From assembly GCA_021648725.1 (NCBI GenBank), contig JAKISF010000002.1:32002-96001 (forward strand): a DNA stretch of 64,000 nt, read 5' to 3'. Source of the stretch: Bacteroidales bacterium. Its GTDB lineage: Bacteria; Bacteroidota; Bacteroidia; Bacteroidales; JAADGE01. Under the pieces are notes generated by a model that saw nothing but the letters and a program-made list of their open reading frames with translations, was not told where the DNA came from and did not search any database. Below, one piece after another: positions 1-54,212 of the stretch; positions within the stretch are counted from its first letter, which is position 1; every line of letters begins with the position of its first letter. Both the position numbers and the translations under genes were made by a program.

Positions 1-125
1 GCTTTTTCAAAAGAAGTCATTATGTAAAAGAAATTGATTTGACAAAAGTTTCAAGCGGGTTTTATACCATTAAAATAAAATCTAAAAAATATACGGAGGC
101 ATTAAAATTAATATTAAGCAATTAA
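1..125 (+). CDS. 3' end of an upstream gene; the tail resembles a T9SS (Por) C-terminal sorting domain
   Basis: The frame starting at nt 3 is open from the window edge to TAA at 123-125. It reads FFKRSHYVKEIDLTKVSSGFYTIKIKSKKYTEALKLILSN*, which fits the usual G-x-Y-x-hydrophobic-K ... K-hydrophobic ending of Bacteroidota T9SS cargo. It is too short for the ORF track. Confidence 0.5.
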   Translation, partial: FFKRSHYVKEIDLTKVSSGFYTIKIKSKKYTEALKLILSN

Positions 126-143
126 ATTGTAAAATATTATAAA

Positions 144-3100
144 ATGGGACTCTTTTCAAAAAATCGAACTAAAATATTGTTGATAGGAATCATTTCATTT
201 GCTTTAATATTTATATCGGTAGGAAAAAATGATTTAATAGTCAACTCAATATTCTTGTTTAAAAAGAGTCCTAAGTCTGATGCACCGCATAATGTTACAT
301 GCAATGCTTGTCATATTACACACACAAGCCCTGGTATTTCATTAACTTCGGTGCAAGGAAATGCTAATTTATGTATGAGTTGCCATAATCCTCTCGGAAC
401 AGCAGCCGCAAAAACAATATCAAATGCTGATAAAGCCGTCCCGGGAGTTTCCGGAACATCTCATTCATGGGATATATCAGCAATAAGCAGCACATATGAT
501 GCCCAGCTTCCGGTAAACCCCGCAATGCTTTCACGTATATTAAATGATACAATTATTTGCTCAACCTGTCATAATCAACATTCTCAAACATATACTTTCT
601 TTTTAAGAGCCAACAATACAGGCGATGCAATTTGTAAAGATTGCCATTTGCCGAGAAACATCGGCCGGTATGAAGACGATAATATAAACAACAGAGGAAG
701 TCATCCTGTCGGACTTACATATGACGGAAATGACCCTCGTTTCTTTTCTTCACCGTCTGCACCTTTACAAATTTTAGATTCAAAGATTGAATGTTCAAGT
801 TGTCATAAGCTGCATTTTTCTGCTACAAATGACGGAAATCTTTTAAGGATAACAAATGATGATAACTTATGTCAAAGTTGCCATACATATACAGGACATA
901 TTACAATGGGTTGCAATACCTGCCATCAAGTTCACAACAGCAACAAATCTAATATTTATCTGATAAAAGACACAATAAGCACTCCCAACAGCGGCAACAT
1001 ATCTGTTGTTTTTACTTCAACAAATGGTACTAATTCTTTTGCTGACGGGGATTTAACCTACGACGGAATTTGTGAAGCGTGTCACACAACAACAAACTAT
1101 CATCAAAATAATACAGCAGGAAACCACACACATAACGTAGGTACAAATTGTATAAATTGCCATTCACATCAAAATAACTTCCTGCACGGCGGAGATTGTA
1201 AAAAATGTCATGGCCATGATGCCGGTTATGAATATGAACCCGGTCTTTATTGTGTAGGAAACGGCACTTTTCAAAGTCATTCTACCCATACAGAAATTGA
1301 TACAGATGATCTAATCGGACCGAACATCAGCTGTGAAACCTGTCATGACACAACAGATTTTCCTTATTTCATTTCCGGAACTGATGTAAATGCAGATACA
1401 AGATTCGATTTATCAGAAACAGATGTTTGTGATAATTGCCACAGCCCGGGAGGTCTTTTTGACGGCGTTAACAATAATAACCTCGGAGCAAAAAACAATT
1501 GGAATAACGGAATTTATTCCGGAAACAATCTTCAATCAGGAAAAAACAATTGGTGTGCAACATGCCACGACTCAGACAGAGCAAGCAGTAACCAAGACGG
1601 AACAGGAACTCCGGCTCCGGATGTTGCCGGCGATTCAATAAATTACGGCTACTATTATTCCGGACACGGAAAAAATCAGATAATAAATTGTACTGATTGC
1701 CATGACCCTCTAAGTAGTCATTTAGACGGAAACATAAGAACATACACATTCTCTGATGCAATTGCTAATTTAACCGGCTCAGAATATCGAGCAGGCTACA
1801 GATTAAAACAAATAAACGGACTTGAACCTATGCGTATTCCTCTGAACGATCCTTTAATCTCTCAACTTGACTCTGCAAACTTCAGATTATGTATCAGTTG
1901 CCATAATTGGGACAGCATTTCAAGTAACACGGTTCCTTATTCAACAAATTTTAATCATTCGGGAGCAAATGCGGCTTATTCTTTCGGATATGGCGTTGTT
2001 ACGGAAAGAAACAATCATTTATTCAATCATCTGGATTTTCAAGCACACGGAAGAATTGAGCCTTATTGGGATTCTGATTGGGATAGTAATACAACAGCAA
2101 CAGTAGCAGGAAGTTCAAACCCGGAAGTTAACGGTTATGATTCATATATCACATGCGTTACCTGCCATGATGTTCACGGAGGACAAGCATTCGGAGGAAA
2201 TACTGAAGGAAATATGATGCGAGACGGAAGACTGCAAAACAGGGAACCGGGTCTTAAATTTACTTTTCTTATAGAAGCTGCAGGAGGCTTACCTTTAGTT
2301 ACATCTGTAGGTGCAAATAAGGAAAACAGTATAGGAGGTGTAATAAGAAGCGGTGTTGACTATAGAGCCGGGTATAATGATGCAATTCCTCAGGCAAATG
2401 CAATATGCGGCGGTTGTCATTCTGAAACTTATCCTGTTACAGATGAATATAATGCTTCCGGAAACGGAGGAAACAGCTGTACTCCTTGTCATCCGTTTTC
2501 TTCTTCCTCCAATTATTATATGGAATATTACAGAGTTCCGAAGCCTTTGAGTTGTACGCTTTGCCACGAACAACCTCCTGACGGAGCAAGTTTCCCGAAT
2601 TCATCAGGTTCTCATGAAACTCACATGAACAGTACTAAAGGACCTAACATTTCCGACTGCTCTGTTTGTCATGCAAGTTCAGGGAATGTTACTCACATTA
2701 ATCAAATTGCAAGCTTTGCCTCCGGAATTGACTCTGACGGTAACGGAAACATAGAACTTTCTGAAACCGATGTATGTAATAATTGTCACAGCCCCGGCGG
2801 TACTTATGACGGAGTAAATGATCCAGAAATCGGAGCAAAAAACAATTGGCAATCCGGCGTTTATTCAGGCAACGATTTAACGGCAGGTAAAGAAAAATGG
2901 TGTGCAACATGCCACGATGAAAACCCTGCAAACAGTATGTATGACGGAACGGGAATTTTTGCATCAAAAGTTATCGGAGATGAAAGTGCATCATATATAT
3001 ACGGAACAGGTTACGGTTATTATAAAACAGGACACGGATTACCCGATACTGTAAGCTATCCTGCAAGCGGCGGTGTTACAAGCGGAGCCGGACTAACTTG

Positions 3101-6050
3101 CAGTGCTTGTCATGATTACTCCTCTGTACACATTGATCATATTCAACGAACATTTAACGACGGAGATGTCAGTACAACAAGTCCGAGCACATACACGGCA
3201 GGGTATCGTTTAAAATTAATAGGCGGTCTTGACCCGATGCAAATACCGTTAGCTCTAAATACTGTTCCTTTGAATAACAGCAATCAGTTTTTATTATGCT
3301 ACAGTTGTCACAATTCCGGTCCGTTTTTAACTTCTTCTGATATGAATACAAATTTGGTAACAGACGGAATAAACAGACATGAATATCATTTGAGAATGAA
3401 TCAAATAAGATATTCATCTGATTGGGACGGTAATTTAAACAGCAGAATAACTTGTGTTTCATGTCACAATGTGCATGGTTCAAAATTCTTAACAATGGTT
3501 AGGGACGGAGAACTTATTGACAGCGTACCCGGTTTACAAATTTGGTATAATAATGATGCAATTGCAACATACAACACCTCTAACCCTGAGCCGCCGGAAC
3601 CTCAAAACATAGACCTTGCAGCAAGTACCGGCACTGTTTGGATCGGCAGAAGTTCAAGTAACTTATGTACTCATTGTCACAATAACGGAAATACAACACC
3701 CGAATACAGAAATCCTTATCAAGATGTAAATATTGCTCCTTGGTTGGAATGGGCAGGAGATTTAGATTTTGAAAATGACGGAGTAACGGCTGACACAGCA
3801 AAAGCAAATTCTGATTTTCTTTTCAGGGTTAATTATTTTGATGTCAACAATGATTTTCCGTCAATATATAAGATGTTAGCAGATGTAAACGGAGACGGAA
3901 TTACAGATTCTGTTGATATGATTGTTAAAGAAGGTGATAATAATTTTACCGACGGAAGTACATATTACAAAACTATAAATATAACTCGCCCTGCAAACGG
4001 TTCCGGAAACGTAGATTATAAGTTTTACTTTGTTTCTACTGATTCAGTTGCAACGGGTGAGCCTACAATCAATCATCAGTTTTATGTTGAAAATAATTCC
4101 CCGACATTAAACTGGGCAGGTAATTTATTTTTTGAATCTGACGGAATCCACCCAAATACCGGACCTGTCGGAAATTTCGATTTTGAGATTGTATATACTG
4201 ATATTGACGGCGACAATCCGTCAACAATGAATCTGATTATAGATGGTGTCTTACCCGGATATACGATGACAGCCGGAACAGGAAGTGTTGTATCCGGAAG
4301 AACATACTCAACAACTGTTTCAATTGCAACACCCGGAAATCACACATACCGTTTCTTTGCTGTTGATAATGCAATATGGGGAGATACTGCGATTTTTGAA
4401 ACCCTACCTGTAACAAACAATTCATTTACGGTTACAAATACCGCAAACAATGTTCCTACGCTTGATTATGAAAACAGTTCATGCTTTACAAAAAGTGTAA
4501 TGCCTGTACGTGGTCCTGTTGATGGAGATTATGATTTCAACATTGTTTATACAGATTTAGATAATGAAGTTCCTGTTGAGATAAAAGTTGTTGTTGACGG
4601 CACAAATGAATACCCGCTTTCTCCGATAAGCGGAAACATTTTAACAGGAATGACATACGGTACAACAATACAGATAAATAGTGCAGGGGAGCATTATTAT
4701 AATTTTTATGCAAATGACGGAATAGATATTGCAATCGGAGAACCGACAATACTAAACGGAGATACATTAATCGTAATTAACGCTTTGAAAGTCAAGCTTA
4801 ATGACACTCGACCCGGTTGGTACGGATCAATTCAATCGGCAATTGATGCTTTTTCAGATACTATAATAATGGTATATCCGGATACTTATAATGAAAAACT
4901 CAGTTTCTTAGGTACGGGTGATGATAAAATAATATTGGAAGCAGTTTGTTCTCCCGAAAATACAATTATTGATTCAACCGGAAATACAATTTTTATTCAA
5001 AATGTGCCTACATATACAAAGATAATCGGATTTACTGTAACCGGAGGAACAAACGGAATTTATATTAACAACGGGAAAACAGAAATTATCGACTGCATAA
5101 TCAGAAATAATACCGAAAGAGGTATTAATTCCGGTAATCCGGGAAATATTTTGACCGTTTCGAACACAACAATAAGAAATAATAATGCAAGCGGAACAAG
5201 TGCAAATATATACGGAGCAGGTATATTTTTCAACGGCGGGACATCCCATATTATATCAGGGTGTATTATCAAAAATAACCATGCCTCAGTAAGAGGCGGA
5301 GGTGTATATGCACAAAATATCAGTAGCGGAAATCTGACTTTAATAAATACAGAAGTTTCCGATAATATTTCTGATAATGCCGGAGGCGGAATAGGTGTTA
5401 ATGCTGCAAATATTGTTATTGACAAATGTAAGATATTCTCAAATACAGCTTCAGGGACAAGTGTTGCCGGAGGATTGTTTGCCCAAGGAACAGCTTACTC
5501 TGTTGACATAACAAACAGTATTTTTGCAAACAATGCAGGCAAAGACGGCGGAGCCTTTTGGTTTAATTCCGATATGATTGTTTCAATTGCAAACTCAGTA
5601 TTCACGGAAAATACAACTTCTGACCTAATCGGAGGAAGGGGCGGAGCATTATTTACTTATGACAGCGACCCGACAATAATTAATTCTATTTTTTGGAACA
5701 ATACTGCCGGCAGTAATTATCAAACGGGGCATGATTGTTATGCACATCAATCCGGTTCAGTTTTTACAATTACATATAGTGACTTGATAAACAACAAAGC
5801 AATGTTATCGGGTAGCGGAACGTTTAATGTCGGCTCAAATAACATAGGGTATAATCCTCAATTTGAAAATCCCTCGTTAAAAGATTATCGACTAAAATCT
5901 GTTTCTCCGTGTATTGATATAGGAACTTCAGTAAATGCTCCGTTTGATGATATTAACGGAAAAATAAGAGGTTTTGACGGCAGAGGAGACGGAAATATTA
6001 CCGGAGACTCATCAGATTATGATATAGGTGCTTATGAATATGCCCCGTAA
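144..6050 (+). CDS. giant multihaem c-type cytochrome (26 CxxCH) fused to three Ig-like repeats and a C-terminal right-handed parallel beta-helix domain
   Basis: 1968-aa ORF with an N-terminal hydrophobic anchor/signal (ILLIGIISFALIFISVG). I count 26 CxxCH motifs up to nt ~3680 (CNACH ... CTHCH), many as CxxCHxxH. Three ~110-120 aa repeats follow at nt ~3735-4790 (WAG.L.FE.DG ... Y.F.A.D). Nt ~4790-6050 shows repeated N-N-x-A/GGG turns typical of parallel beta-helices and ends DYDIGAYEYAP. Confidence 0.9.
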   Translation: MGLFSKNRTKILLIGIISFALIFISVGKNDLIVNSIFLFKKSPKSDAPHNVTCNACHITHTSPGISLTSVQGNANLCMSCHNPLGTAAAKTISNADKAVPGVSGTSHSWDISAISSTYDAQLPVNPAMLSRILNDTIICSTCHNQHSQTYTFFLRANNTGDAICKDCHLPRNIGRYEDDNINNRGSHPVGLTYDGNDPRFFSSPSAPLQILDSKIECSSCHKLHFSATNDGNLLRITNDDNLCQSCHTYTGHITMGCNTCHQVHNSNKSNIYLIKDTISTPNSGNISVVFTSTNGTNSFADGDLTYDGICEACHTTTNYHQNNTAGNHTHNVGTNCINCHSHQNNFLHGGDCKKCHGHDAGYEYEPGLYCVGNGTFQSHSTHTEIDTDDLIGPNISCETCHDTTDFPYFISGTDVNADTRFDLSETDVCDNCHSPGGLFDGVNNNNLGAKNNWNNGIYSGNNLQSGKNNWCATCHDSDRASSNQDGTGTPAPDVAGDSINYGYYYSGHGKNQIINCTDCHDPLSSHLDGNIRTYTFSDAIANLTGSEYRAGYRLKQINGLEPMRIPLNDPLISQLDSANFRLCISCHNWDSISSNTVPYSTNFNHSGANAAYSFGYGVVTERNNHLFNHLDFQAHGRIEPYWDSDWDSNTTATVAGSSNPEVNGYDSYITCVTCHDVHGGQAFGGNTEGNMMRDGRLQNREPGLKFTFLIEAAGGLPLVTSVGANKENSIGGVIRSGVDYRAGYNDAIPQANAICGGCHSETYPVTDEYNASGNGGNSCTPCHPFSSSSNYYMEYYRVPKPLSCTLCHEQPPDGASFPNSSGSHETHMNSTKGPNISDCSVCHASSGNVTHINQIASFASGIDSDGNGNIELSETDVCNNCHSPGGTYDGVNDPEIGAKNNWQSGVYSGNDLTAGKEKWCATCHDENPANSMYDGTGIFASKVIGDESASYIYGTGYGYYKTGHGLPDTVSYPASGGVTSGAGLTCSACHDYSSVHIDHIQRTFNDGDVSTTSPSTYTAGYRLKLIGGLDPMQIPLALNTVPLNNSNQFLLCYSCHNSGPFLTSSDMNTNLVTDGINRHEYHLRMNQIRYSSDWDGNLNSRITCVSCHNVHGSKFLTMVRDGELIDSVPGLQIWYNNDAIATYNTSNPEPPEPQNIDLAASTGTVWIGRSSSNLCTHCHNNGNTTPEYRNPYQDVNIAPWLEWAGDLDFENDGVTADTAKANSDFLFRVNYFDVNNDFPSIYKMLADVNGDGITDSVDMIVKEGDNNFTDGSTYYKTINITRPANGSGNVDYKFYFVSTDSVATGEPTINHQFYVENNSPTLNWAGNLFFESDGIHPNTGPVGNFDFEIVYTDIDGDNPSTMNLIIDGVLPGYTMTAGTGSVVSGRTYSTTVSIATPGNHTYRFFAVDNAIWGDTAIFETLPVTNNSFTVTNTANNVPTLDYENSSCFTKSVMPVRGPVDGDYDFNIVYTDLDNEVPVEIKVVVDGTNEYPLSPISGNILTGMTYGTTIQINSAGEHYYNFYANDGIDIAIGEPTILNGDTLIVINALKVKLNDTRPGWYGSIQSAIDAFSDTIIMVYPDTYNEKLSFLGTGDDKIILEAVCSPENTIIDSTGNTIFIQNVPTYTKIIGFTVTGGTNGIYINNGKTEIIDCIIRNNTERGINSGNPGNILTVSNTTIRNNNASGTSANIYGAGIFFNGGTSHIISGCIIKNNHASVRGGGVYAQNISSGNLTLINTEVSDNISDNAGGGIGVNAANIVIDKCKIFSNTASGTSVAGGLFAQGTAYSVDITNSIFANNAGKDGGAFWFNSDMIVSIANSVFTENTTSDLIGGRGGALFTYDSDPTIINSIFWNNTAGSNYQTGHDCYAHQSGSVFTITYSDLINNKAMLSGSGTFNVGSNNIGYNPQFENPSLKDYRLKSVSPCIDIGTSVNAPFDDINGKIRGFDGRGDGNITGDSSDYDIGAYEYAP

Positions 6051-6112
6051 TTATTCTCGAGAAGGGATAATTTTAAATAAAAAAACGTATATTAGTAAAA
6101 AATAATGAAAAT

Positions 6113-8635
6113 ATGAAGACTTTTACAAAAAACAAAAACAGATTATTTGCAATATTAGTAATATTATTCAGCAGCATTGTTATAGCTTTAAGTATGAATA
6201 ATTTTTCTTTGAATTCAATACTCAACTCAAAGGTTAACCCGAAATCAGATTTTCCGCATAACTTTACGTGTAATGCATGCCACATTCTGCACACAAGCCC
6301 CGGAATATCATTAACATCTGTTCAGGGTAATGCAAATCTTTGTATGAGTTGTCATAATCCCACTGGTGTCGCAAATTTAAAACCTTTTTCAGTTAATGAT
6401 AAAGCTGTTCCGGGTACAAAAGGAACTTCACACTCATGGGATGTATCTGGTATAAATAACCTTTATGCTGCAAACCTCCCGACAGAAGCAAATATGCTTT
6501 TACGCATTATAAATGATACAATTATTTGTTCAACATGTCATAATCAACATTCTCAAGCATTTACTCCTTTTTTAAGAGCTGACAATACAGCAGATGCAAT
6601 GTGCAAAGATTGCCACTCGGCAAGAAATCTCGGATTATATGCTACTGATAATACAAATAACAGAGGAACACATCCTGTCGGAGTAGTTTATAACGGTGCA
6701 GATTCTCGGTTATTCTCTGTGCCTAATGCCCCGCTTCTCGCAATAGGCGGAAATGTTGAATGTTCAAGTTGTCATAAATTACATTATGCAACAACTACTG
6801 ACGGAAATCTGTTAAGAAAAACAAATGATGCAAGTTTATGCACATCTTGCCATGTATATAAAAACTTCGGAACATCATTAGACCATGAAAGTATGACTTG
6901 TGTAACTTGTCATTATGCACATCAAAACAATTCCGGTAATATTTTCTTAGTCCGAGATGTAATTAATACTCCTAACAGCGGAGCTCAAAATGTCGTTTTT
7001 ACGGCAAATACAAGTGCTGATAATTATGCAGACGCAACAGGTACTTTCGACGGTGTTTGTGAAGTTTGCCATACACTTACCGACCATTATACAAATACAA
7101 CAGGCGGAACCGCTGATGCAAGACATGTTCCCGCAACCCAAACATGTATATCTTGTCACCCTCACGATAATGCTTTTTATGCTCAGTCAAACTGCTTCGA
7201 TTGTCACAACACCGTTCAAGATAAGCCCGCTGTAGGACCTGTCGGAGGAAGAAGGCAAATTGTAGATGACAGCGGCGACGGGCTCGGAACAGGGGGTGAT
7301 TTTAAAAGATCATCACATCATGTATCAGGAGCAATTCCGAATGTAAGTGATTGTTTAAAATGCCATTATATGGGAGATCATAAAAACGGAGAGGTTAAAT
7401 TATTTGATCCTGACCAAGGATATTTAAATGTAATAACTTACGACCCGGTAAACAAAGCAAGTATCGAAGATTTTTGTCTGAATTGTCATGATGCCGACGG
7501 TTCTAACGGAGATACAACTCCTTTCAGTGACGGCATTGCAGTACCGTTGGTTGATAAAACTTTATGGAACGGTTCTTCTCACAAAACAAGTGTTTATACT
7601 TGTCTTGATTGCCATGACAACGGACACGGTTCTAATAAAAGCAAATTACTCGAACCTTTTGATTATACTGCAGATGCAACTCCCGACCCGATGAATGACC
7701 AAGAAGAATTCTGTGAAAGATGCCACAGTGCAGCAGGTGCAGCAACATCAGATATCGAATCTGAATTTAACCTTACTCATTCTCATCAAGTTGATGAAGT
7801 TGCAGAAATGGGAACAAATTCAGGTCTTGAATGTATTAATTGTCATAATCCGCATCAAAATACCGCAGTAAACCCTGTCAGCGACCCTGATAATAATGCA
7901 ACCCTAATGTCAATCAATAACGGAGCAAACGGAACACGAGATTTCTGTTTACGTTGTCATGACGGAACACCTCCTGCCGGCATTTCTTTCCCCGCAACTT
8001 CTTACGGCACGGGGTGGAATAAATCAAGTTATGTTAGTTCTCGCCACGATGCAACAATAAATATCGGCGAAACAAATTTTACGGGAACAAAAGATGATTG
8101 TTTATCGTGTCATCAGCATCACGCTGCCTCCGGTGTTGCAGAAACAAATAAAACAGGAATATACACCATGATACGAGGCAAATACGACAAAAGCGGTAAT
8201 GCAACCTCTGATGCTTGTAATCCGTGGGATAATAACGATAACGGAGATTACCAATTATGTTGGGATTGCCATTTTAAAGAAATGGTTGATAAGAATGACG
8301 GAACTTATGGTGTAAATGCCTTTGATGACAGGCATGACACACATGTTGACGGAGAAGAATCTCCGTGTATCATTTGTCATGATGTGCATAATCCTTATGA
8401 TATAGGCGAACCTGGACATATAAATTTTGTATATGGTTCAAGTGCAAAAGCAAGTAACGATAATAATTTATTCAGCGGTCAGTCCGGCTCATTTTATATC
8501 TCCGGTTCCAGAGGATACTGTAGTTTAAGGTGTCATGAAACATTTTCAGGCGGCTGCGGCAGAAAAGGGCATAACCCTAAAAATTACGATCGTTTTCCGC
8601 TTACATATCCGTGGGGGTATTTGTGGCCGAAATAA
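6113..8635 (+). CDS. multihaem c-type cytochrome (19 CxxCH plus one CxxxCH), paralog of the upstream gene
   Basis: 840-aa ORF with an N-terminal hydrophobic segment (LFAILVILFSSIVIALS). The first ~365 aa are collinear with the 144..6050 product, carrying the same 10 haem motifs in the same order. The alignment starts at residue 43 in both (P-K-S-D-x-P-H-N-x-T-C-N-A-C-H). The C-terminal half is different but still haem-rich (CLKCH ... CIICH, then CSLRCH). Confidence 0.9.
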   Translation: MKTFTKNKNRLFAILVILFSSIVIALSMNNFSLNSILNSKVNPKSDFPHNFTCNACHILHTSPGISLTSVQGNANLCMSCHNPTGVANLKPFSVNDKAVPGTKGTSHSWDVSGINNLYAANLPTEANMLLRIINDTIICSTCHNQHSQAFTPFLRADNTADAMCKDCHSARNLGLYATDNTNNRGTHPVGVVYNGADSRLFSVPNAPLLAIGGNVECSSCHKLHYATTTDGNLLRKTNDASLCTSCHVYKNFGTSLDHESMTCVTCHYAHQNNSGNIFLVRDVINTPNSGAQNVVFTANTSADNYADATGTFDGVCEVCHTLTDHYTNTTGGTADARHVPATQTCISCHPHDNAFYAQSNCFDCHNTVQDKPAVGPVGGRRQIVDDSGDGLGTGGDFKRSSHHVSGAIPNVSDCLKCHYMGDHKNGEVKLFDPDQGYLNVITYDPVNKASIEDFCLNCHDADGSNGDTTPFSDGIAVPLVDKTLWNGSSHKTSVYTCLDCHDNGHGSNKSKLLEPFDYTADATPDPMNDQEEFCERCHSAAGAATSDIESEFNLTHSHQVDEVAEMGTNSGLECINCHNPHQNTAVNPVSDPDNNATLMSINNGANGTRDFCLRCHDGTPPAGISFPATSYGTGWNKSSYVSSRHDATINIGETNFTGTKDDCLSCHQHHAASGVAETNKTGIYTMIRGKYDKSGNATSDACNPWDNNDNGDYQLCWDCHFKEMVDKNDGTYGVNAFDDRHDTHVDGEESPCIICHDVHNPYDIGEPGHINFVYGSSAKASNDNNLFSGQSGSFYISGSRGYCSLRCHETFSGGCGRKGHNPKNYDRFPLTYPWGYLWPK

Positions 8636-8645
8636 ATTATAAAAA

Positions 8646-8690
8646 CTAATCTGCTTAAAGAAAAAAGTATAATTTCTTTAAGCAGATTAG
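8646..8690 (+). terminator. long perfect hairpin after the cytochrome pair
   Basis: CTAATCTGCTTAAAGAAA (8646-8663) and TTTCTTTAAGCAGATTAG (8673-8690) form a perfect 18-bp inverted repeat with a 9-nt loop, 11 nt after the stop codon. No clear T-run follows. Confidence 0.55.
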
Positions 8691-8749
8691 CCGGATTTAT
8701 AACAAAACATTAAAAAATAAAATTTCCTTTTTATTTTAAAAAAAAAGTA

Positions 8750-8757
8750 TAATTTTG
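8750..8757 (+). promoter_or_regulatory. Bacteroidota-type -7 box (TAnnTTTG)
   Basis: TAATTTTG lies ~23 nt upstream of the ATG at 8780. This argues against the GTG at 8759 that the ORF track uses as the start. Confidence 0.4.
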
Positions 8758-8779
8758 CGTGCTTGTTTTAAAAAGGGTA

Positions 8780-9292
8780 ATGAATAGGTTTATAATTAAG
8801 TTCAGAGGTTTAAGCGAAGAAAAGTACCGTTTTGAAGCAGATGATACTTTTTTTAATCAATTTAAAGAAAGTGAAATAAAAAAAGGAACGGTTCACTTTG
8901 ATGTGAAAATGGTTTTTAACAAAAACTTGATTACATTAAATATATCGTTAAAAGGAAATGTTTTTGTTGAATGCGACAGATGTTTAGATTACTTTTATCA
9001 GAAAATAAAACATAAAACCATTCTTTATGTTGAGTTCGGGTATGAAAACTCGGACATAACAGATGTTGACAATAAAATAATATTGAGTAACAAAGAAAAC
9101 GAAATAGTTCTTGATAAGCATTTTTACGATTATATACATTTAAGTTTACCGTATCAAAAAGTTCACCCGAAACACAATAACGGTAATTCAGGTTGTAATA
9201 TTGAAATGATTAATAAAATGGCGGAATTTTCTTCCGTAAATAATAAGAAAACAGACCCCAGATGGGATCAATTAAAAAATCTTTTTAATTAA
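8780..9292 (+). CDS. DUF177 (YceD-like) protein
   Basis: It sits in the conserved position immediately upstream of rpmF. Size, acidic composition and the C.RC... pattern (VECDRCLDYF) fit the DUF177 family. The start is moved to the ATG at 8780 because of the -7 box; the track ORF begins at GTG 8759. Confidence 0.75.
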   Translation: MNRFIIKFRGLSEEKYRFEADDTFFNQFKESEIKKGTVHFDVKMVFNKNLITLNISLKGNVFVECDRCLDYFYQKIKHKTILYVEFGYENSDITDVDNKIILSNKENEIVLDKHFYDYIHLSLPYQKVHPKHNNGNSGCNIEMINKMAEFSSVNNKKTDPRWDQLKNLFN

Positions 9293-9320
9293 AAATAACA
9301 GACTATTAAAATAAATAAAC

Positions 9321-9506
9321 ATGGCACATCCTAAAAGAAAAATATCTAAACAAAGAAGAGATAAACGTCGAACACACATTAAAGCAACAACCCAACAACT
9401 GTCAACGTGTTCAAATTGCGGAGCAACCGTAAGGTATCATACAGTTTGCTCTGAATGCGGTCATTACAGAGGAAAATTGGCAATTGAGAAAGAAGAAGCA
9501 TTGTAG
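9321..9506 (+). CDS. rpmF: 50S ribosomal protein L32
   Basis: MAHPKRKISKQRRDKRRTH is the canonical L32 N-terminus. The four-Cys zinc ribbon CSNCG...CSECG is present. Confidence 0.95.
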   Translation: MAHPKRKISKQRRDKRRTHIKATTQQLSTCSNCGATVRYHTVCSECGHYRGKLAIEKEEAL

Positions 9507-9559
9507 TTACGTATTTATAGGTTTCTCCATCGGAAATTTATAACATATAACAATCAAAG

Positions 9560-9587
9560 CCGGTATTTTAATCAATACCGGTTTTTG
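9560..9587 (+). terminator. rho-independent terminator after rpmF
   Basis: CCGGTATT (9560-9567) pairs with AATACCGG (9574-9581) and is followed by TTTTT. Confidence 0.7.
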
Positions 9588-9689
9588 TCTTTGAATTATA
9601 TGAATTTATTAAACTAAAATTGATGAAAATATTTTGTTTCCTTTAAACTAAACTATATTTTCGTGCTTATTTTCAAAATAATATATAAA

Positions 9690-10685
9690 ATGACAAAAAT
9701 AAATGCAGCAATTACCGGAATAGGCGGATATGTCCCCGATTATATTTTAACAAATGACGAACTATCTACTATGGTTGACACGTCTGACGAATGGATAATG
9801 ACACGAATCGGAATAAAAGAAAGACATATACTCAAAGAAGAAGGAAAAGGAACTTCTGACATGGGTGCAGAAGCAGTAAAACAATTATTAACAAAAACCG
9901 GAACAAAACCGGAAGAAGTTGATTTGTTAATTTGTACAACAGTTACACCTGATATGCAATTTCCGGCAACTGCAAATATTATTTCAGATAAAATAGGTAT
10001 AAAAAATGCTTTCAGTTTTGACTTAAATGCAGGATGTTCGGGATTTTTATTCGGAATGTCAACCGCATCTAAATTCATTCAATCCGGTCATTATAAGAAA
10101 GTTGTGCTGGTAGGTGCAGATAAAATGTCTTCAATTGTTGATTATACCGATCGCTCCGTAAGCCCGATATTTGGAGACGGTGCCGGAGCTGTTTTATTTG
10201 AGCCCACAACTGAAGACGTAGGATTTATTGACGAAAAATTACATGTTGACGGTTCAGGACGTGTACACCTCCATCAAAAAGCCGGGGGTTCGGTAAAACC
10301 GGCTTCACATGAAACGGTTGATGCTCGTGAACACTTTATTTATCAGGAAGGACAGGCTGTTTTTAAGGCTGCTGTAAAAGGAATGGCTGACATTTCCGTT
10401 GAGATGATGAAAAAACATAATTTATCTTCCGATGATATTGCATGGCTTGTTCCCCACCAAGCTAATAACAGAATTATTTCCGCAACAGCTAAAAGAATGA
10501 ATCTATCCCCCGAAAAAGTTATGATTAATATTGAACGTTACGGAAATACAACAGACGGAACCCTTCCTCTGCTTCTGTGGGAATGGGAAAAAAAGCTTAA
10601 AAAAGGTGACAAATTAATTTTTGCAACATTCGGTGCCGGCTTTACATGGGGTGCTATATATTTTAAATGGGCATACAATTCATAA
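9690..10685 (+). CDS. fabH: 3-oxoacyl-ACP synthase III (KAS III)
   Basis: [22 protein letters not shown], active-site NAGCSGF, HQAN and GNT motifs are all present. The start is placed at ATG 9690; the track ORF begins at an upstream GTG 9663. Confidence 0.95.
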
Positions 10686-15703: not shown

Positions 15704-16351
15704 ATGAAAGTACACCGATTAGTTTTCAGTTCATTTGAAGTTAACACTTACATTGTCAGCGATAAATCTAACGAATGTGTTATTATTGACCCTGCTTGCA
15801 AGAATAAACAAGAGCAAAATTATTTACTGAACTTTTTGAAGGAACAACGTTTAAAACCGGTAAAATTATTAAACACGCATTGCCATCTCGATCACGTTTT
15901 TGGGAATAAATTTGTAAGCGATACATTCAACCTTGAAACCGAAGCACATAAAGAAGAAGAATTTAATATTACAAATTCTGTCAATGCAGCAAATCTTTAC
16001 GGTGTACAAATGGAAAAACCTTACCCGGTAAAAAAATTTCTTAAAGAAGGCGATAAAATTAAGTTCGGGGTTTCAGAATTAGAAATGTTTCACGTCCCGG
16101 GGCATACAGCAGGAAGTATCGTTTTTTATAATAAAAAAGAAAAACTTGCAATAGTCGGAGATGTTCTTTTTAACGGCAGCATAGGAAGAACCGATCTTCC
16201 CGGCGGAGATTTCGATACTTTAATAAACGGCATAAAAACCAAATTATTTAAATTGGACGATTCGGTAACGGTATATCCGGGACACGGTCCGGCAACAAGC
16301 ATAGGAAAAGAAAAACAAACCAATCCGTTTTTATCCGGAACTCAATTATAA
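15704..16351 (+). CDS. MBL-fold metallo-hydrolase (glyoxalase II-like)
   Basis: THCHLDHVFG metal-binding motif, HVPGHTAGS, and GD.LF.GSIGRTD. Confidence 0.88.
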   Translation: MKVHRLVFSSFEVNTYIVSDKSNECVIIDPACKNKQEQNYLLNFLKEQRLKPVKLLNTHCHLDHVFGNKFVSDTFNLETEAHKEEEFNITNSVNAANLYGVQMEKPYPVKKFLKEGDKIKFGVSELEMFHVPGHTAGSIVFYNKKEKLAIVGDVLFNGSIGRTDLPGGDFDTLINGIKTKLFKLDDSVTVYPGHGPATSIGKEKQTNPFLSGTQL

Positions 16352-16498
16352 ACTGTTATCTCTTTTCTTAAACTATGTTTAAAAAATACTTTTTTTATTG
16401 ATAATTATCACCTCAAACAAAATAGTAATTACTAATTTTACTGAAAAACAGAAAAGAAATATAAGTATTTTATTTAACTTATAATAAGCACATTAACC

Positions 16499-19366
16499 AT
16501 GCAAACAGATAGGTTTTCAAATCGTCACATCGGCCCTCGCAACAATGACATTAAAGATATGTTATCAACAATCGGTTTAAATTCCGTTGATGAATTAATT
16601 GATAAAATTGTTCCTGATTCTATTCTTTTGAAAAAAGAATTAAAACTTGATAAAGCAATAAGTGAATATGATTATCAAAAGAATATTGCAAAAATAATTG
16701 CAAAAAATAAAATATATAAAACATATATAGGAACGGGATATTACAATACAATAAGCCCTGCCGTTATTATCAGAAATGTTCTTGAAAACCCTGTTTGGTA
16801 CACTTCTTACACACCTTATCAGGCAGAAATTTCACAAGGAAGATTAGAAGCTCTTTTAAATTTCCAAACCGTTATTACCGAATTAACAGCTTGCGAAATT
16901 GCAAATGCTTCTTTATTAGATGAAGCAACAGCAGCATCCGAAGCAATGATAATGATGGCAAATTCTCGTAACCGAAAAGCTGTTAAAGAAGGAACAAATG
17001 TTCTTTTTGTTGACGAAAACATTTTTCCGCAAACATTAGAAGTGATTCTCGGTAAAGCTGAGCCTTTGGACATTAAAATTGAAACCGGCAGCTTTAAAAG
17101 TTGCGAACTACATGATAAAATTTTTGGTGCAATAATTCAATATCCTGCAAATGACGGAAAAATTTATAATTATTCCGAGTTCACAAAAGCAGCACATGAA
17201 AAAGGAATTTTAGTAAGTGTCGCAGCTGATTTATTAAGCCTTGCAATTTTAACTCCTCCCGGAGAATGGGATGCCGACATTGTTTTCGGCACAACACAAC
17301 GTTTCGGAATTCCTATGGGCTACGGCGGACCTCATGCAGCATATTTTGCAACAAGAGAAAATTTCAAAAGAAAAATTCCCGGCAGAATTATAGGTGTTTC
17401 AAAAGATGTTCACGGTAACAAAGCATTACGTATGGCATTGCAAACTCGCGAGCAGCATATAAAACGAGAAAAAGCAACCTCAAACATTTGTACGGCACAG
17501 GCTCTTTTAGCAACAATGGCAGGGATGTATGCTGTTTATCACGGAAAAGAAGGTTTGATTGATATTGCTTCATCAATTCATGCAAAAGCAAACATTATTT
17601 CCGAACAAATTACAAAACTCGGCTATAAACAAGAAAATGAAAATTATTTTGACACACTAAAAATACAACTTCCCGATTCAGTACCGGTAAAAGAGCTTAA
17701 AAAAATTGCAATTAAGAAAAAAGTAAATTTCAGATATTTTTCCGAAAATAGAATAGGAATAAGTATAAACGAAACAACTTCAATTCTTGATATAAACAAT
17801 ATACTTCGTGTATTTTCATTAGCAATCGGGAAAGACATTAAAAAAATTACTAAAATTGAAAATAGTTTCAGCTTTAATTCAAAATTTAAACGGCGAACAT
17901 CTTTTTTAAAGCAGGACGTTTTCAAAAAATATCATTCCGAAACAGAAATGATGCGCTACATTAAAATGCTTGAACGCAAAGATATGTCATTAACACATTC
18001 TATGATTTCTTTGGGTTCTTGCACAATGAAACTTAACCCTGCAACTCTGATGATGCCTTTAAGCAGTCCGTATCTTGGAGAAATTCATCCTTTTGTTCCG
18101 AAAAATCAAGCAAAAGGTTATCATCAGATATTTGAAGAACTAAAAAATGATTTATTAGAAATCACAGGTTTTGATGATATTACATTTCAGCCTAATTCCG
18201 GAGCATCGGGAGAATACACCGGACTAATGATTATCAGAGAATACCAAAAAACAACTATAGAAGAAAACAGGAATATTGTACTAATTCCGGCATCTGCTCA
18301 CGGTACAAATCCGGCAAGTGCAGTTATGGCAGGTATGGAAGTTGTTATTGTTAAATGCGATGAAAACGGTAATATTGATGTTGAAGATTTAAAAGCAAAA
18401 GCAGAAGAGCATAAAGAAAATTTATCTGCAATGATGATTACATATCCTTCTACACACGGTGTGTTTGAAACAGAAGTTGTTGAGATGTGTAAAATAATTC
18501 ACAAAAACGGAGGGCAAGTATATATGGACGGTGCAAACATGAACGCACAAGTAGGAATAACAAATCCGGCAAAAATTGGTGCTGATGTTTGCCACCTTAA
18601 CTTACATAAAACATTTGCAATTCCTCACGGCGGAGGCGGTCCCGGAGTAGGTCCCGTTGCAGTTGCAAAACACCTTTCAGGATTCTTACCCGGACACCCG
18701 ACAGTAAAAACAGGAGGAAAAAATGCAATTAAAGCTGTTTCGGCAGCACCTTGGGGCAGTGCAAGTATTCTTGGTATCACACACGGATACTTGAAAATGT
18801 TGGGAGCAGACGGGCTGCTTAATTCAACAAAAACAGCAATTTTAAATGCAAATTATATTGCCGCTTCCTTAAAAAACTATTTTAAAATTCTTTATACCGG
18901 AAAAAACGGTTATGTTGCACATGAAATGATTTTAGAATGTCGAAACTTCAAACAAGAAGCCGATATAAATGAAGCCGACATAGCAAAACGGCTTATGGAT
19001 TACGGCTTTCATGCTCCTACACTTTCATTTCCCGTTCACGGAACATTAATGGTTGAGCCTACGGAGAGCGAGTCGAAACAAGAAATGGATAAGTTCATTG
19101 AATCAATGATTTCAATATACAACGAAATTCAAGACATAAAAAACGGCAAATGTGATAAACATGATAATATGTTGAAAAATGCACCACATTGCGAGCAAGT
19201 GCTAATTTCTGACAACTGGGAACATAAATATTCCCGAGAAACAGCGGCTTATCCTTTATCGCATATCAGAACAAATAAGTTTCAAATTCCGGTAGGCAGG
19301 ATTGATGATGCATACGGTGACCGAAATTTGTTTTGTACATGCGACCCCGTTGAAAGTTTTGAATGA
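16499..19366 (+). CDS. gcvP: glycine dehydrogenase (decarboxylating), single-chain P protein
   Basis: 955 aa. Contains FSNRHIGP, YTPYQAEISQGRLEALLNFQT, and the PLP-lysine region HLNLHKTFAIPHGGGGPG. Confidence 0.96.
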   Translation: MQTDRFSNRHIGPRNNDIKDMLSTIGLNSVDELIDKIVPDSILLKKELKLDKAISEYDYQKNIAKIIAKNKIYKTYIGTGYYNTISPAVIIRNVLENPVWYTSYTPYQAEISQGRLEALLNFQTVITELTACEIANASLLDEATAASEAMIMMANSRNRKAVKEGTNVLFVDENIFPQTLEVILGKAEPLDIKIETGSFKSCELHDKIFGAIIQYPANDGKIYNYSEFTKAAHEKGILVSVAADLLSLAILTPPGEWDADIVFGTTQRFGIPMGYGGPHAAYFATRENFKRKIPGRIIGVSKDVHGNKALRMALQTREQHIKREKATSNICTAQALLATMAGMYAVYHGKEGLIDIASSIHAKANIISEQITKLGYKQENENYFDTLKIQLPDSVPVKELKKIAIKKKVNFRYFSENRIGISINETTSILDINNILRVFSLAIGKDIKKITKIENSFSFNSKFKRRTSFLKQDVFKKYHSETEMMRYIKMLERKDMSLTHSMISLGSCTMKLNPATLMMPLSSPYLGEIHPFVPKNQAKGYHQIFEELKNDLLEITGFDDITFQPNSGASGEYTGLMIIREYQKTTIEENRNIVLIPASAHGTNPASAVMAGMEVVIVKCDENGNIDVEDLKAKAEEHKENLSAMMITYPSTHGVFETEVVEMCKIIHKNGGQVYMDGANMNAQVGITNPAKIGADVCHLNLHKTFAIPHGGGGPGVGPVAVAKHLSGFLPGHPTVKTGGKNAIKAVSAAPWGSASILGITHGYLKMLGADGLLNSTKTAILNANYIAASLKNYFKILYTGKNGYVAHEMILECRNFKQEADINEADIAKRLMDYGFHAPTLSFPVHGTLMVEPTESESKQEMDKFIESMISIYNEIQDIKNGKCDKHDNMLKNAPHCEQVLISDNWEHKYSRETAAYPLSHIRTNKFQIPVGRIDDAYGDRNLFCTCDPVESFE

Positions 19367-19435
19367 TTAATTTCTGTTTGTCTTTAGAAGCTGTTAAAAA
19401 ATAAAGATTTTTAACACAAGAAGACAAAAAATGAA

Positions 19436-29998: not shown

Positions 29999-31243
29999 AT
30001 GACAAAAACACAACAACTTAAAAACTTCAGTTACTTCGGAGGTTCCCATATCGGAAATGTCCGTGAAGAAAATGAAGACGCATTTACTCATTTTGAAACA
30101 GTTAACGGAAGTTTTTTTGTGTTGTGTGATGGCATGGGAGGAATTAAGGGCGGAAAAAAGGCCGCAGAAATTACAATTAAGCAAATTGAAAAATACTTGT
30201 CGGAAGAATGGGAGGAAAATCCACAAATTCTGATAAAAAACGCAATAGAATTTGCAAACAACAAGGTTTTCGAATATTTTGAAAAAAGAAGTCTCGGACA
30301 AAAGCCCGGAACAACAATTGTTTTAGTTCTTATCCGAAATAATAAGGTTTATTATGCACATGTCGGCGACAGCAGAGTTTATTACCAAACCGGAAAAAAA
30401 ATATTTGCATTAACACAAGACCATTCTTTCGTAATGAACTTAGTAAACCGAAAAATTATTACGGAAAATGAGGCAAGAGAGCATATCAGGCGAAACGAAA
30501 TTACAAAAGCAGTCGGAATTAAGGAATTTGCCGACCCGTCAGTTTGTAAAGATTTTATTAGTCCCGTTGATAATGATTACATTCTTTTATGCTCTGACGG
30601 ACTAACCAACGAACTGACAAACAAAGAAATACTTAACATTTTATTAAATAATAAAGATATTGACAAAAAAGTTAATTTGCTGATTAACAATGCTCTTGAT
30701 AACGGGGGAGACGATAATATAACAGTACAACTGATTCGCTTTTATAATACCGGAAAAGAAACAAATACTGATTTTTTAAAAAAACAGTCAAAGTCGAAAA
30801 AAGTTAAAACGCGTTTTTTTTATTTGTTCGTTTTCCTTTTTTTAGTCTCATCAGTGCTTATTATTCGATATTTTATTAAAGACCCCGTTGTAGTAAAAAA
30901 GGACAACAAGTCAAGTTCTGCATTACTTATATACAAAAAGCAAAGTAACGACACTTTAATAAATGTTTTCATAAAAGCAGGGTCAAAAACGAATGATATT
31001 CATAAAAGATTCAATATACAGCCTGAAGAAATAGGTCGTGCAACCGGATTATCGGAACATAAAAGTTTTATTAAATACTATATCCCCGTAAAAGATGTTT
31101 ATAAAAAAAGAGTCGGGAAATATATTTATTCGTATCCGGATATTAAAAAACGTAATATGATTGACATCTTAATTGCAAATAAAAAGAACGAACTTTTTTT
31201 TATCCCGGGGGAAATAATAATAATACCGAAAAAACAAAAATAA
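29999..31243 (+). CDS. PP2C-family Ser/Thr protein phosphatase with a TM segment and an extracytoplasmic C-terminal domain
   Basis: RE.NEDAF, VLCDGMGG, LLCSDGL and GGDDNITV motifs, then the TM helix FYLFVFLFLVSSVLIIRYFI. Confidence 0.88.
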   Translation: MTKTQQLKNFSYFGGSHIGNVREENEDAFTHFETVNGSFFVLCDGMGGIKGGKKAAEITIKQIEKYLSEEWEENPQILIKNAIEFANNKVFEYFEKRSLGQKPGTTIVLVLIRNNKVYYAHVGDSRVYYQTGKKIFALTQDHSFVMNLVNRKIITENEAREHIRRNEITKAVGIKEFADPSVCKDFISPVDNDYILLCSDGLTNELTNKEILNILLNNKDIDKKVNLLINNALDNGGDDNITVQLIRFYNTGKETNTDFLKKQSKSKKVKTRFFYLFVFLFLVSSVLIIRYFIKDPVVVKKDNKSSSALLIYKKQSNDTLINVFIKAGSKTNDIHKRFNIQPEEIGRATGLSEHKSFIKYYIPVKDVYKKRVGKYIYSYPDIKKRNMIDILIANKKNELFFIPGEIIIIPKKQK

Positions 31244-39457: not shown

Positions 39458-39611
39458 TGAGAAATATTTTTGATTCGAAATACAAGTTAATTGTTTTTTA
39501 TAAATAAAACAACCCGATATGAATTGTAACGATTTCCCTTTCATTTAAATTATATTTTTTGTGTTGTAAATCCTATTTGAAGGTTTAAATTATTAATTAA
39601 TTTGTTTTATT

Positions 39612-40435: not shown

Positions 40436-40481
40436 ATATTCCCGAAAGAAAAGGGATAGAAAAATATAATCAAAAATGCAA

Positions 40482-40509
40482 AGCGTAGCTTTTTCGGCTG
40501 CGTTTTTTT
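40482..40509 (+). terminator. rho-independent terminator downstream of the pseudogene
   Basis: AGCGTAGC / GCTGCGTT form a stem with G-U wobbles around a TTTTTCG loop, followed by a T-run (TTTTTTT). Confidence 0.45.
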
Positions 40510-40610
40510 ATTATAACCTTATCTGTCTTATTTCAATGTAAGGTACTCAGTTCGGAATAATATAAACTTTAAACAAATCAAAAAACAATAAATAAATCAT
40601 TAAATTTAAT

Positions 40611-40618
40611 TAATTTTG
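40611..40618 (+). promoter_or_regulatory. TAnnTTTG -7 box
   Basis: TAATTTTG lies 47 nt upstream of the ATG at 40666. Confidence 0.35.
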
Positions 40619-40665
40619 TCGCTTATTAAGGATAATTACGACCTTCCCTTATATTTTTTACAACT

Positions 40666-46606: not shown

Positions 46607-47083
46607 ATGAAACAAAAAAAAACAATTACATACATTGCGTTTTTGCTCTTAGGAATAGGAGGATTACACGCACAAGAAAGCCCGGTTGCCGCAGGCGGTA
46701 AGGCAACAGGAGCTGGCGGAACAGTCAGTTACTCCGTAGGACAAGTAGTTTATACTGCTCACACGGGCACAACAGGAAGCATTTCACAAGGTGTTCAACA
46801 ACCTTACGAAATTTATACAACAGTAGGAATAAACGAAATATCTGTCAATTTGGAACTTTCCGTTTATCCCAATCCTACCGACGGTTATTTAACTTTAAAA
46901 TCAGAAGACAGCAGCAATTTGAGTTATCAATTATTTAACATACAAGGAAAAATAATTGAAGACAAAATAATAAGCAGCACTTCTACAGACATTAGTTTGG
47001 AAAGCCAAGCATCAGCCGCTTACTTTTTAAACGTATTAAAAAATAACCAAGTAATAAAAACATTTAAAATAATCAAAAACTAA
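46607..47083 (+). CDS. small secreted T9SS cargo protein (type A sorting domain)
   Basis: Signal peptide ending LHAQ, then a Gly-rich AAGGKATGAGGTVSYSVGQVVYT module. The T9SS CTD reads LSVYPNPTDGYLTLK ... AAYFLNVLKNNQVIKTFKIIKN. Confidence 0.8.
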   Translation: MKQKKTITYIAFLLLGIGGLHAQESPVAAGGKATGAGGTVSYSVGQVVYTAHTGTTGSISQGVQQPYEIYTTVGINEISVNLELSVYPNPTDGYLTLKSEDSSNLSYQLFNIQGKIIEDKIISSTSTDISLESQASAAYFLNVLKNNQVIKTFKIIKN

Positions 47084-47087
47084 AATT

Positions 47088-48320: not shown

Positions 48321-48360
48321 CCTGGTGAAATAATTTTAAAAATGGATTTTTGCTAAGCAA

Positions 48361-48387
48361 CCTGTCAGGTTTTAAAAATCTGACAGG
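48361..48387 (+). terminator. hairpin between the two fibre-like genes
   Basis: CCTGTCAG (48361-48368) pairs with CTGACAGG (48380-48387) around an 11-nt loop. Only a weak T-run follows. Confidence 0.4.
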
Positions 48388-52438: not shown

Positions 52439-52864
52439 ATGAAAAAATCAGTATATATATTAGCCCTTTTGGTCTTCTCTGTTGCCGCAACAGCAATGAT
52501 GACACCAAAAAAAATGTTTAACTTTAACATCGGTCAAACTGATGAGTGGGTTGCTCCAAAAAGTGCCGATAATAATAAAAACCCATTTTCAGGAAATGAA
52601 GAAGCAGCCAAATTCGGAAAAAAACTTTACAAGCAAAACTGTGCAATTTGCCACGGAAACAAAGGTATGGGCGATGGGCTTGCAGGTATGAGTCTGAAGC
52701 CGAAACCGACAAACCTTACAACAGAAAATTTTAATAAACAATCAGACGGTGCAATTTTCTGGAAATTAACAGAGGGAAATTCTCCGATGCCTTCGTATAA
52801 AAAAACATTCACGGAAAAACAGCGTTGGCAGGTCGTAACTTATTTAAGAGAAATTAAGAAATAG
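52439..52864 (+). CDS. monohaem class I c-type cytochrome (periplasmic)
   Basis: Signal peptide; a single CAICH motif in the context LYKQNCAICHGNKGMGDG; a distal Met candidate (SPMPSY). Confidence 0.85.
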   Translation: MKKSVYILALLVFSVAATAMMTPKKMFNFNIGQTDEWVAPKSADNNKNPFSGNEEAAKFGKKLYKQNCAICHGNKGMGDGLAGMSLKPKPTNLTTENFNKQSDGAIFWKLTEGNSPMPSYKKTFTEKQRWQVVTYLREIKK

Positions 52865-54172: not shown

Positions 54173-54212
54173 TTATTTTCTAAAAACGTTTTAACTATTT
54201 AATCAATTTAAT

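Follow-up and report, generated by a model that had tools for sequence, protein, structure and literature searches.

A 26-haem cytochrome carrying Ig-like repeats and a beta-helix in a Bacteroidales genome points to an uncharacterised, multi-phylum family of proposed extracellular electron-transfer cytochromes

The stretch analysed here, called the window in the following, comprises 64,000 nucleotides (nt) of contig JAKISF010000002.1 (positions 32,002 to 96,001 of the forward strand) from the Bacteroidales assembly GCA_021648725.1. Its longest open reading frame (ORF), 144..6050, encodes a protein of 1968 amino acids (aa) that combines a long array of predicted haem c attachment sites with three immunoglobulin (Ig)-like repeats and a parallel beta-helix. 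The initial annotation had singled out this ORF for carrying 26 CxxCH motifs in its first ~1180 aa, and this count was confirmed: the motifs lie within aa 53-1179, one per ~45 residues, whereas residue shuffles yielded 0.06 motifs on average and at most 2. The assignment to a Bacteroidota-like genome likewise agrees with the NCBI name of the organism and with the sorting domains of the type IX secretion system (T9SS) found in the window. The gene is made up as follows.

144..6050, + strand: whole gene, multihaem cytochrome c with three Ig-like domains and a beta-helix (ATG start, open frame, 1968 aa)
144..224, + strand: predicted N-terminal Sec-type signal, aa 1-27 (basic n-region, hydrophobic stretch aa 9-27 in a hydropathy scan)
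273..1238, + strand: N-module with 10 CxxCH, aa ~44-365, common to the downstream paralogue and to 116 of the 120 best database hits (segment BLAST)
1275..2573, + strand: haem module M1 with 9 CxxCH, aa ~378-810 (first duplication copy and linking haems)
2574..3728, + strand: haem module M2 with 7 CxxCH, aa ~811-1195 (the copy belonging to the conserved cassette)
3729..4823, + strand: three tandem Ig-like beta-sandwich repeats, aa 1196-1560 (AlphaFold2 (AF2) model and Foldseek; a type absent from Pfam)
4824..5876, + strand: right-handed parallel beta-helix, aa ~1561-1911 (Pfam Beta_helix, AF2 strands, Asn ladder)
5877..6047, + strand: C-terminal choice-of-anchor-Q motif, aa 1912-1968, with the end DYDIGAYEYAP (NF041518; poorly ordered in the model)

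NCBI lists the product of 144..6050, with identical sequence, as 'MAG: hypothetical protein L3J35_01085 [Bacteroidales bacterium]', located on a 171-kb contig. Orthologues with 61-79% identity have the same length and retain all 26 CxxCH motifs; a scan of genome contigs recovered two orthologues, both with 79% identity. In the comparison with one of these (locus L001), the ratio of nonsynonymous to synonymous substitutions (dN/dS) was ~0.1 in each of five regions of the gene, at dS values of 1.1-1.9, i.e., near saturation. Because this low ratio holds throughout and the motifs are kept in the orthologues, the comparison indicates that 144..6050 is a real gene in which every domain is constrained by purifying selection. 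Together with the equal length of the orthologues, the same evidence rules out an artefact or a pseudogene. A scan for promoters and terminators returned nothing over background, and no terminator was detected between the upstream gene, 144..6050 and the following ORF 6113..8635.

The segment aa 9-27 within the putative signal is the sole hydrophobic segment of the entire protein according to the hydropathy scan. Homologues from Desulfobacterota possess canonical AxA signal peptides directly ahead of a conserved D[AY]PHN motif, which is found at aa 46-50 in the 1968-aa protein.

The CxxCH motifs of the haem region (aa 1-1195) take up 52 of the 60 Cys residues of the protein. There are 33 further His and 14 Met residues in this region, enough to supply a distal (sixth) ligand for each haem, and seven His residues outside the motifs are invariant across 25 family members (H379, H382, H964, H996, H1079, H1082 and H1111). 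The additional observation that many motifs take the form CxxCHxxH was overstated: this form exists, but it accounts for 6 of the 26 motifs (aa 53, 139, 217, 257, 671 and 1104), with two more of the form CxxCHxH. Four Pfam families matched above their cut-offs, namely Paired_CXXCH_1, Cytochrome_C7, Cytochrom_c3_2 and the MtrC/MtrF II/IV domain PF22113 (78.4 bits vs 30), the latter with its best stretch at aa 752-927.

Searching for repeats within the protein by BLAST, we found an internal duplication, in which aa 378-708 align with aa 823-1135 (37% identity, E 1e-55). Moreover, aa 1-365, comprising the signal and the first 10 haem sites, share 56% identity with the beginning of the ORF 6113..8635 product. 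Because of this shared N-module and the internal duplication, the haem region is best described, at the level of sequence, as a composite of 10 + 9 + 7 haems. The 17-haem homologues P0005-P0011 contain the N-module and one copy only of the duplicated module, and M2 shares 41-69% identity with the one such module of homologues with 10-23 haems, where it always stands immediately ahead of the Ig repeats. The AF2 model built for aa 1-1195 from a 25-sequence alignment reached a mean predicted local distance difference test score (pLDDT) of 34.6 and was unusable for haem spacing.

The C-terminal part (aa 1190-1968) was modelled far more confidently, with a pLDDT of 80 and a predicted template modelling score (pTM) of 0.65, and consists of three beta-sandwiches followed by a long regular beta-helix. 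The sandwiches, at aa ~1200-1309, 1311-1431 and 1439-1545, bear out the three tandem Ig-like repeats of the initial annotation, as do the Foldseek matches to this model, which were mostly tandem-Ig proteins. BLAST within the protein detected no similarity among the three repeats, their pattern being recognised by eye and from the model, and all Pfam and NCBIfam matches of the Ig-like repeat were sub-threshold. Searched against PDB with a family profile, the Ig repeat aligned to a non-catalytic beta module of the Paenibacillus xanthanase 6fhj (E 4e-8).

The right-handed beta-helix proposed earlier is also supported, by Pfam Beta_helix (PF13229; 42.2 and 52.7 bits vs a cut-off of 25.9) and by a regular pattern of short strands over aa ~1548-1917 with pLDDT values mostly between 85 and 97. 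The family alignment contains an invariant Asn ladder, and the invariant columns of the helix are mostly Gly and these ladder positions. Foldseek gave no specific match for the beta-helix; the family profile matched Rhombotarget A in PDB (9cdu, E 4e-6) as well as pectinesterases. The last 55 aa match NCBIfam choice_anch_Q (NF041518) with 27.4 bits when this region is searched alone and with 23.9 bits in the context of the whole protein (cut-off 25), so that membership appears borderline. The final 45 residues have a pLDDT of ~33. As had been noted, the protein closes on DYDIGAYEYAP: no sorting signal, be it a C-terminal domain (CTD) of the T9SS type or another anchor, was found past the choice-of-anchor-Q motif. 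The entire Ig and beta-helix half has 7 Cys and 8 His residues only and lacks redox cofactor motifs.

To place this architecture among its relatives, we compared the five regions of the protein by BLAST with the 120 best database hits. A cassette consisting of an M2-type 7-haem module, three Ig repeats and the beta-helix recurred with unchanged order in 51 of these 120 hits, with identities of 41-81% for M2, 29-79% for the Ig repeats and 26-78% for the beta-helix, and 44 of the 120 terminate with the D.G[AS].E signature of choice-of-anchor-Q. One homologue, P0039, bears the NCBI choice-of-anchor-Q name. In a cassette homologue, P0029, the choice-of-anchor-Q motif (29.8 bits) is followed by a hydrophobic segment and a basic tail, which, by its sequence, has the format of a C-terminal sorting signal. 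The named hits are all metagenome-assembled genomes (MAGs), assigned to Bacteroidales, Chlorobi/Chlorobiota, Desulfobulbaceae, Desulfuromonadales, Thermodesulfobacteriota and Nitrospirae. The architecture is therefore not singular, since this survey places the cassette in at least 51 cluster representatives from several phyla. Related haem modules are fused to NHL domains in other lineages (e.g., P0073-75, P0089 and P0106).

When the Ig region alone was compared exhaustively by phmmer with 1.84 billion representatives, 898 clusters matched at E <= 1e-3, 115 of them at E <= 1e-30. Among the 135 new top matches, 28 combine at least four haem motifs with a beta-helix, and 96, which are giant repeat proteins with lengths reaching 6784 aa, have no haem motif at all. 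Sampled haem-free giants carry adhesion-type and carbohydrate-binding modules (CBM_4_9, Laminin_G_3, F5/8 type C, fn3, PKD and Beta_helix/NosD). The Ig-repeat family as such is not modelled by Pfam or NCBIfam; most of its members are haem-free, with up to 27 matched stretches (P0121-P0255). Two Ig-repeat proteins, P0132 and P0226, end in PGF-CTERM-like tails (STPGF, a hydrophobic stretch and RKR), which suggests that these are archaeal surface proteins.

Literature searches yielded no paper on a multihaem cytochrome fused to a beta-helix, a choice-of-anchor domain or a T9SS domain, and a term search of papers on multihaem cytochrome diversity and on consortia with extracellular electron transfer (EET) did not bring up the architecture either. 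The initial annotation knew of no characterised example, and we likewise found neither a solved or characterised close relative nor a paper on the fusion. Close homologues that are known periplasmic enzymes, which would have contradicted the first interpretation, were not encountered. On the strength of these comparisons, the protein appears to belong to an uncharacterised, multi-phylum cassette family of modular, extracellular-type multihaem cytochromes.

Further genes in the window bear on this family or on the capacities of the organism.

3..122, + strand: 3' end of the upstream gene, last 39 codons and stop, cut by the window edge (frame +3, reads ...IDLTKVSSGFYTIKIKSKKYTEALKLILSN*)
6113..8635, + strand: paralogue, 840-aa multihaem cytochrome with 19 CxxCH and one CxxxCH (CSLRCH, aa 803-808), 62 nt after 144..6050
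46607..47083, + strand: 158-aa T9SS cargo (Por_Secre_tail, Pfam)
52439..52864, + strand: 141-aa monohaem cytochrome c (Cytochrome_CBB3 / Cytochrom_C domains)

The gene 144..6050 begins 21 nt past the upstream stop codon. The truncated upstream fragment matches Pfam Por_Secre_tail (positions 43-74 of 75, E 4e-4) and TIGR04183, and aligns with the end of a 637-aa protein with NHL, PKD and Por_Secre_tail domains whose gene immediately precedes the 79% orthologue in both L001 and L002. By synteny, the gene ending at 122 would hence encode an NHL/PKD beta-propeller with a T9SS type-A sorting domain. The downstream ORF 6113..8635 shares the signal and the 10-haem N-module of the 1968-aa protein and is devoid of Ig repeats and beta-helix. 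Its best relatives are Bacteroidales proteins of the 'cytochrome c3 family' with fused N-terminal PKD_6 or Gly_rich_2 domains, and similar proteins exist in the cultured genera Carboxylicivirga, Aestuariivivens, Lutibacter and Lutimonas. Further downstream follow the housekeeping genes yceD, fabH, accB and accC and a bactofilin gene. Altogether, the window holds two cytochrome c genes besides 144..6050, and, judging from its ORFs, the organism uses T9SS and makes another c-type cytochrome.

Several side observations were made in the remainder of the window. Behind the T9SS cargo gene lie genes for two proteins, one of 410 aa with an Lcl_C domain and one of 825 aa without Pfam match (46607-50991, + strand), and a short ORF with one CxxCH is located at ~54195-54491 (+ strand). 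A PP2C phosphatase and a Ser/Thr protein kinase, the latter with an SH3_3 domain, are encoded by adjoining genes at 29999-32974 (+ strand), and a heavy-metal P-type ATPase with HMA and HMBD domains at 42718-45216 (+ strand). Between a CAP-domain gene and a DEAD-box helicase gene, a segment of ~1.1 kb (39545-40665) contains only short overlapping ORFs, none longer than 100 aa, and has no Rfam match.

The pairing of an NHL-T9SS gene with the cassette gene recurs in the relatives L001, L002 and L004. Beyond this pair, L001 carries genes for a cytochrome with 6 haems, a 292-aa DUF5777 protein and small cytochromes, as well as for another NHL protein, a cytochrome with 11 haems and a two-component system. 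The DUF5777 protein ends in NITVRFY and is flanked by cytochrome genes ~1 kb downstream of the 79% orthologue (16071-19412, - strand). We take such an ...RFY ending to be typical of outer-membrane beta-barrels, and the segment possibly represents a small porin-cytochrome unit. The cytochromes encoded there have 6 haems and a lipoprotein-like N-terminus in one case, and 1 and 4 haems in the others.

The operon of L004 encodes, in this order, a CcmF-like protein, a NapC/NrfH-like cytochrome (6 haems), a 4-haem cytochrome, a Rieske protein, cytochrome b, a 9-haem cytochrome, the NHL-T9SS protein and the cassette protein. Its Rieske/cytochrome b part resembles an atypical bc-type complex reserved for multihaem partners. 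Within this region (1401-9973, GCA_024278755.1), the 4-haem cytochrome is c554-like and the 9-haem cytochrome has a C-terminal hydrophobic tail. In L005, an NHL gene precedes the gene for a 795-aa cytochrome (33% identity to the product of ORF 6113..8635) and two cassette paralogues, and in L007 (Desulfuromonadales), a gene for a 988-aa beta-propeller lies upstream and a small cytochrome gene downstream. The gene context in the window and in these relatives points to an electron-export cluster.

Among known systems, the Shewanella proteins MtrC, OmcA and MtrF resemble the 1968-aa protein in the PF22113 match, in the alternation of haem domains with beta-rich non-haem domains and in the proposed role of a terminal extracellular reductase. 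However, the protein misses the cut-off of the MtrC/OmcA family TIGR03507 (25.7 bits vs 209.3), lacks a lipobox as well as mtrAB neighbours in the window and has 26 haems instead of 10; its non-haem part is C-terminal and composed of three Ig repeats and a beta-helix, in contrast to the split beta-barrels of the Shewanella proteins. It also scored below the cut-offs of the DmsE/MtrA decahaem family TIGR03508 (74.5 bits vs 192.2), of NrfH/NapC TIGR03153 (34.5 bits vs 134.2, over aa 128-252 and hence away from the N-terminal helix) and of the GSU2203 family (31.7 bits vs 325). A sequence search with the whole protein against PDB gave no hits, and the family profile gave weak, partial ones. With it, positions 52-296 (N-module) aligned to residues 378-623 of 6qvm, a 'Multiheme cytochrome cf' (E 1.4e-5), a distant and partial resemblance. 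This structure is presumably OmhA, judging from the equal protein size of 681 aa only. OmhA, a cytochrome at the surface of Carboxydothermus ferrireducens, plays an important part in the reduction of ferrihydrite (PMC7829351). The Gram-positive surface cytochromes (6qvm, OmhA and OcwA of Thermincola) differ from the protein described here in having no beta-helix or Ig cassette.

Similar in gene arrangement are clusters of multihaem cytochrome (MHC) and NHL genes in Desulfovibrio ferrophilus, which are candidate loci for electron transfer at the outer surface (PMC9769857). In DFE_0448-0451 and DFE_0461-0465, genes for multihaem cytochromes and NHL propellers are clustered without an obvious porin-cytochrome conduit, a likeness that we draw from the published description and not from sequence (PMC9769857). 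Their cytochromes are not described as having a beta-helix, whereas the propeller here has a T9SS tail. Fold and C-terminal motif are shared with choice-of-anchor-Q/beta-helix surface proteins such as Rhombotarget A (9cdu), which are, however, without haem modules; conversely, no sorting signal follows the motif here. Anaerobic methanotrophic (ANME) archaea possess giant multihaem cytochromes fused to S-layer-type surface domains. The likeness to these is conceptual only, consisting in a long haem array fused to a haem-free surface domain, since the fused domains (S-layer vs three Ig repeats, beta-helix and choice-of-anchor-Q end), the lineage and the envelope all differ. A further candidate, the pentahaem selenoenzyme MccSep, which is a polysulfide reductase, was dropped from the comparison for its unrelated architecture. 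Porin-cytochrome clusters have been reported in Ignavibacteria (PMC7399161), and our literature searches found nothing comparable for Bacteroidales.

We propose that the 1968-aa protein is, on balance, probably a Sec-exported modular multihaem cytochrome acting as a distal element of EET in anaerobic marine Bacteroidales. Electrons would pass from the quinone pool to membrane quinol-oxidising modules, represented in relatives by the Rieske/cytochrome b and NapC/NrfH-like proteins, then to small periplasmic multihaem cytochromes and on to the large cytochromes of the cluster. In the 1968-aa protein, ~26 bis-His (or His/Met) haems could conduct along the 10 + 9 + 7 array, which may have arisen through addition and duplication of haem modules. 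The three Ig repeats would serve as spacers and, together with the beta-helix and its choice-of-anchor-Q end, would position or tether the haem array to a polymer of the cell's own surface, a partner protein, or a solid or polymer outside the cell; attachment to the envelope or matrix of its own cell is as conceivable a role for the beta-helix as docking on an external substrate. The likeliest partner would be the upstream beta-propeller, presumably delivered by T9SS. Directly documented are the haem motifs and domains, the internal duplication, the conservation with purifying selection and the gene neighbourhoods. Several elements of this scheme, namely the loading of the haems, the crossing of the outer membrane, the continuity of the chain, the direction and target of the electrons and a binding role of the beta-helix, are what we infer from the family and its context.

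A number of observations weigh against such a role. Neither the whole protein nor its C-terminal 408 aa matched a T9SS CTD, even at E values up to 5, and there is no lipobox, the first Cys being aa 53 within a CxxCH motif. No outer-membrane beta-barrel gene stands beside 144..6050 in the window, which starts 143 nt upstream of it, and no Ccs or Ccm genes were detected among the window ORFs scanned, the CcmF-like gene being known from the cluster of L004. The cassette gene of L006 (a Desulfobulbaceae MAG, 4458-9810) follows directly after nikR and the nickel/cobalt transport genes cbiMQO, without electron-transfer neighbours. There is no characterised member among the 120 best database hits, and the continuous haem chain is assumed from family resemblance only. 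Finally, deletions of MHC genes in the NHL-type clusters of D. ferrophilus did not abolish Fe(III) oxide reduction (PMC9769857). Lacking any known Bacteroidota signal for outer-membrane export, the protein could stay in the periplasm. Because T9SS CTD, lipobox and adjacent porin are all missing, a periplasmic electron store or relay is a serious rival, although we consider it rather unlikely: the protein, soluble or held by an uncleaved N-terminal helix, would act as a capacitor or bridge from an inner-membrane quinol oxidase to an outer-membrane conduit, and its Ig repeats and beta-helix would bind peptidoglycan or a periplasmic partner. The lack of an obvious AxA cleavage site here and in the closest Bacteroidales/Chlorobi-type relatives fits this explanation, as do the weak NrfH-like and DmsE/MtrA-like similarities and the match of several homologues to NosD, a periplasmic beta-helix protein. 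However, the non-haem domains co-occur with extracellular modules, and the conserved partner is a T9SS-secreted surface protein. The choice-of-anchor-type tail, followed in P0029 by a sorting-type tail, also argues for the surface. In NCBIfam naming practice, the choice-of-anchor class is defined by its pairing with surface-sorting signals. Furthermore, an extended protein of 26 haems, three Ig repeats and a beta-helix would, to judge from the domain sizes, outspan the periplasm.

Two other functions appear quite improbable. The protein might be a redox enzyme, in which the beta-helix would be catalytic or handle a cofactor (of the CASH/pectin-lyase fold, or NosD-like with a metal or sulfur) and the haems would supply or remove electrons for a soluble or polymeric substrate. 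This would agree with the family profile matches of the beta-helix to pectinesterases and an alpha-1,3-glucanase, with the NosD matches of homologues and with the resemblance of the Ig repeat to a xanthanase accessory module; yet these matches are weak (E 1e-4 to 0.5) and reflect a shared fold, the Ig and beta-helix half has no conserved Cys/His clusters or known catalytic signatures, and neither NosF/NosY nor carbohydrate-utilisation genes are near (in the window, L001 and L004). Just as improbable is electron uptake or an interspecies wire, with electrons running in reverse or from cell to cell; their source would be a mineral, a surface resembling a cathode, or a syntrophic partner whose glycans the beta-helix would bind. 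Multihaem cytochromes are reversible conduits, the Rieske/cytochrome b modules of L004 could run in either direction, and homologues derive from sediment or vent MAGs, Desulfobulbaceae and Desulfuromonadales among them. On the other hand, the sequence gives no sign of direction or partner, and the window ORFs scanned include none specific to syntrophy.

The initial annotation had inferred a haem wire coupled to a surface-binding or adhesin module. The genuine multihaem fusion, the PF22113 match, the electron-export context and the extracellular-type non-haem domains speak for it, but a T9SS CTD, a lipobox and other outer-membrane export signals known for Bacteroidota are all missing; we therefore regard it as plausible and partly supported.

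Large multihaem cytochromes are the chief known route by which electrons reach minerals, electrodes and partner cells, and mechanistic knowledge about them stems almost entirely from Shewanella and Geobacter. The present results point to giant cytochromes of an unstudied family in Bacteroidales of marine sediment or vent settings, with a fixed cassette of haem module, Ig repeats and beta-helix that recurs across at least four bacterial lineages and is linked to beta-propeller partners and, in relatives, to modules of Rieske protein and cytochrome b. Tentatively, and with considerable doubt, one may go further and view the cassette and the propeller as an unrecognised multi-phylum surface electron conduit, in which the haem chain is directly wired to a beta-helix that binds glycans or solids. 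Such a conduit would, in Bacteroidota, reach the surface without a known sorting signal, for example via the T9SS propeller, and would amount to a mode of extracellular respiration new to the phylum. If the beta-helix indeed binds, it would pose a concrete export puzzle for the Bacteroidota envelope, and it would represent a built-in targeting device for an electron wire, with a bearing on how cells make electrical contact with solids, polymers and other cells.

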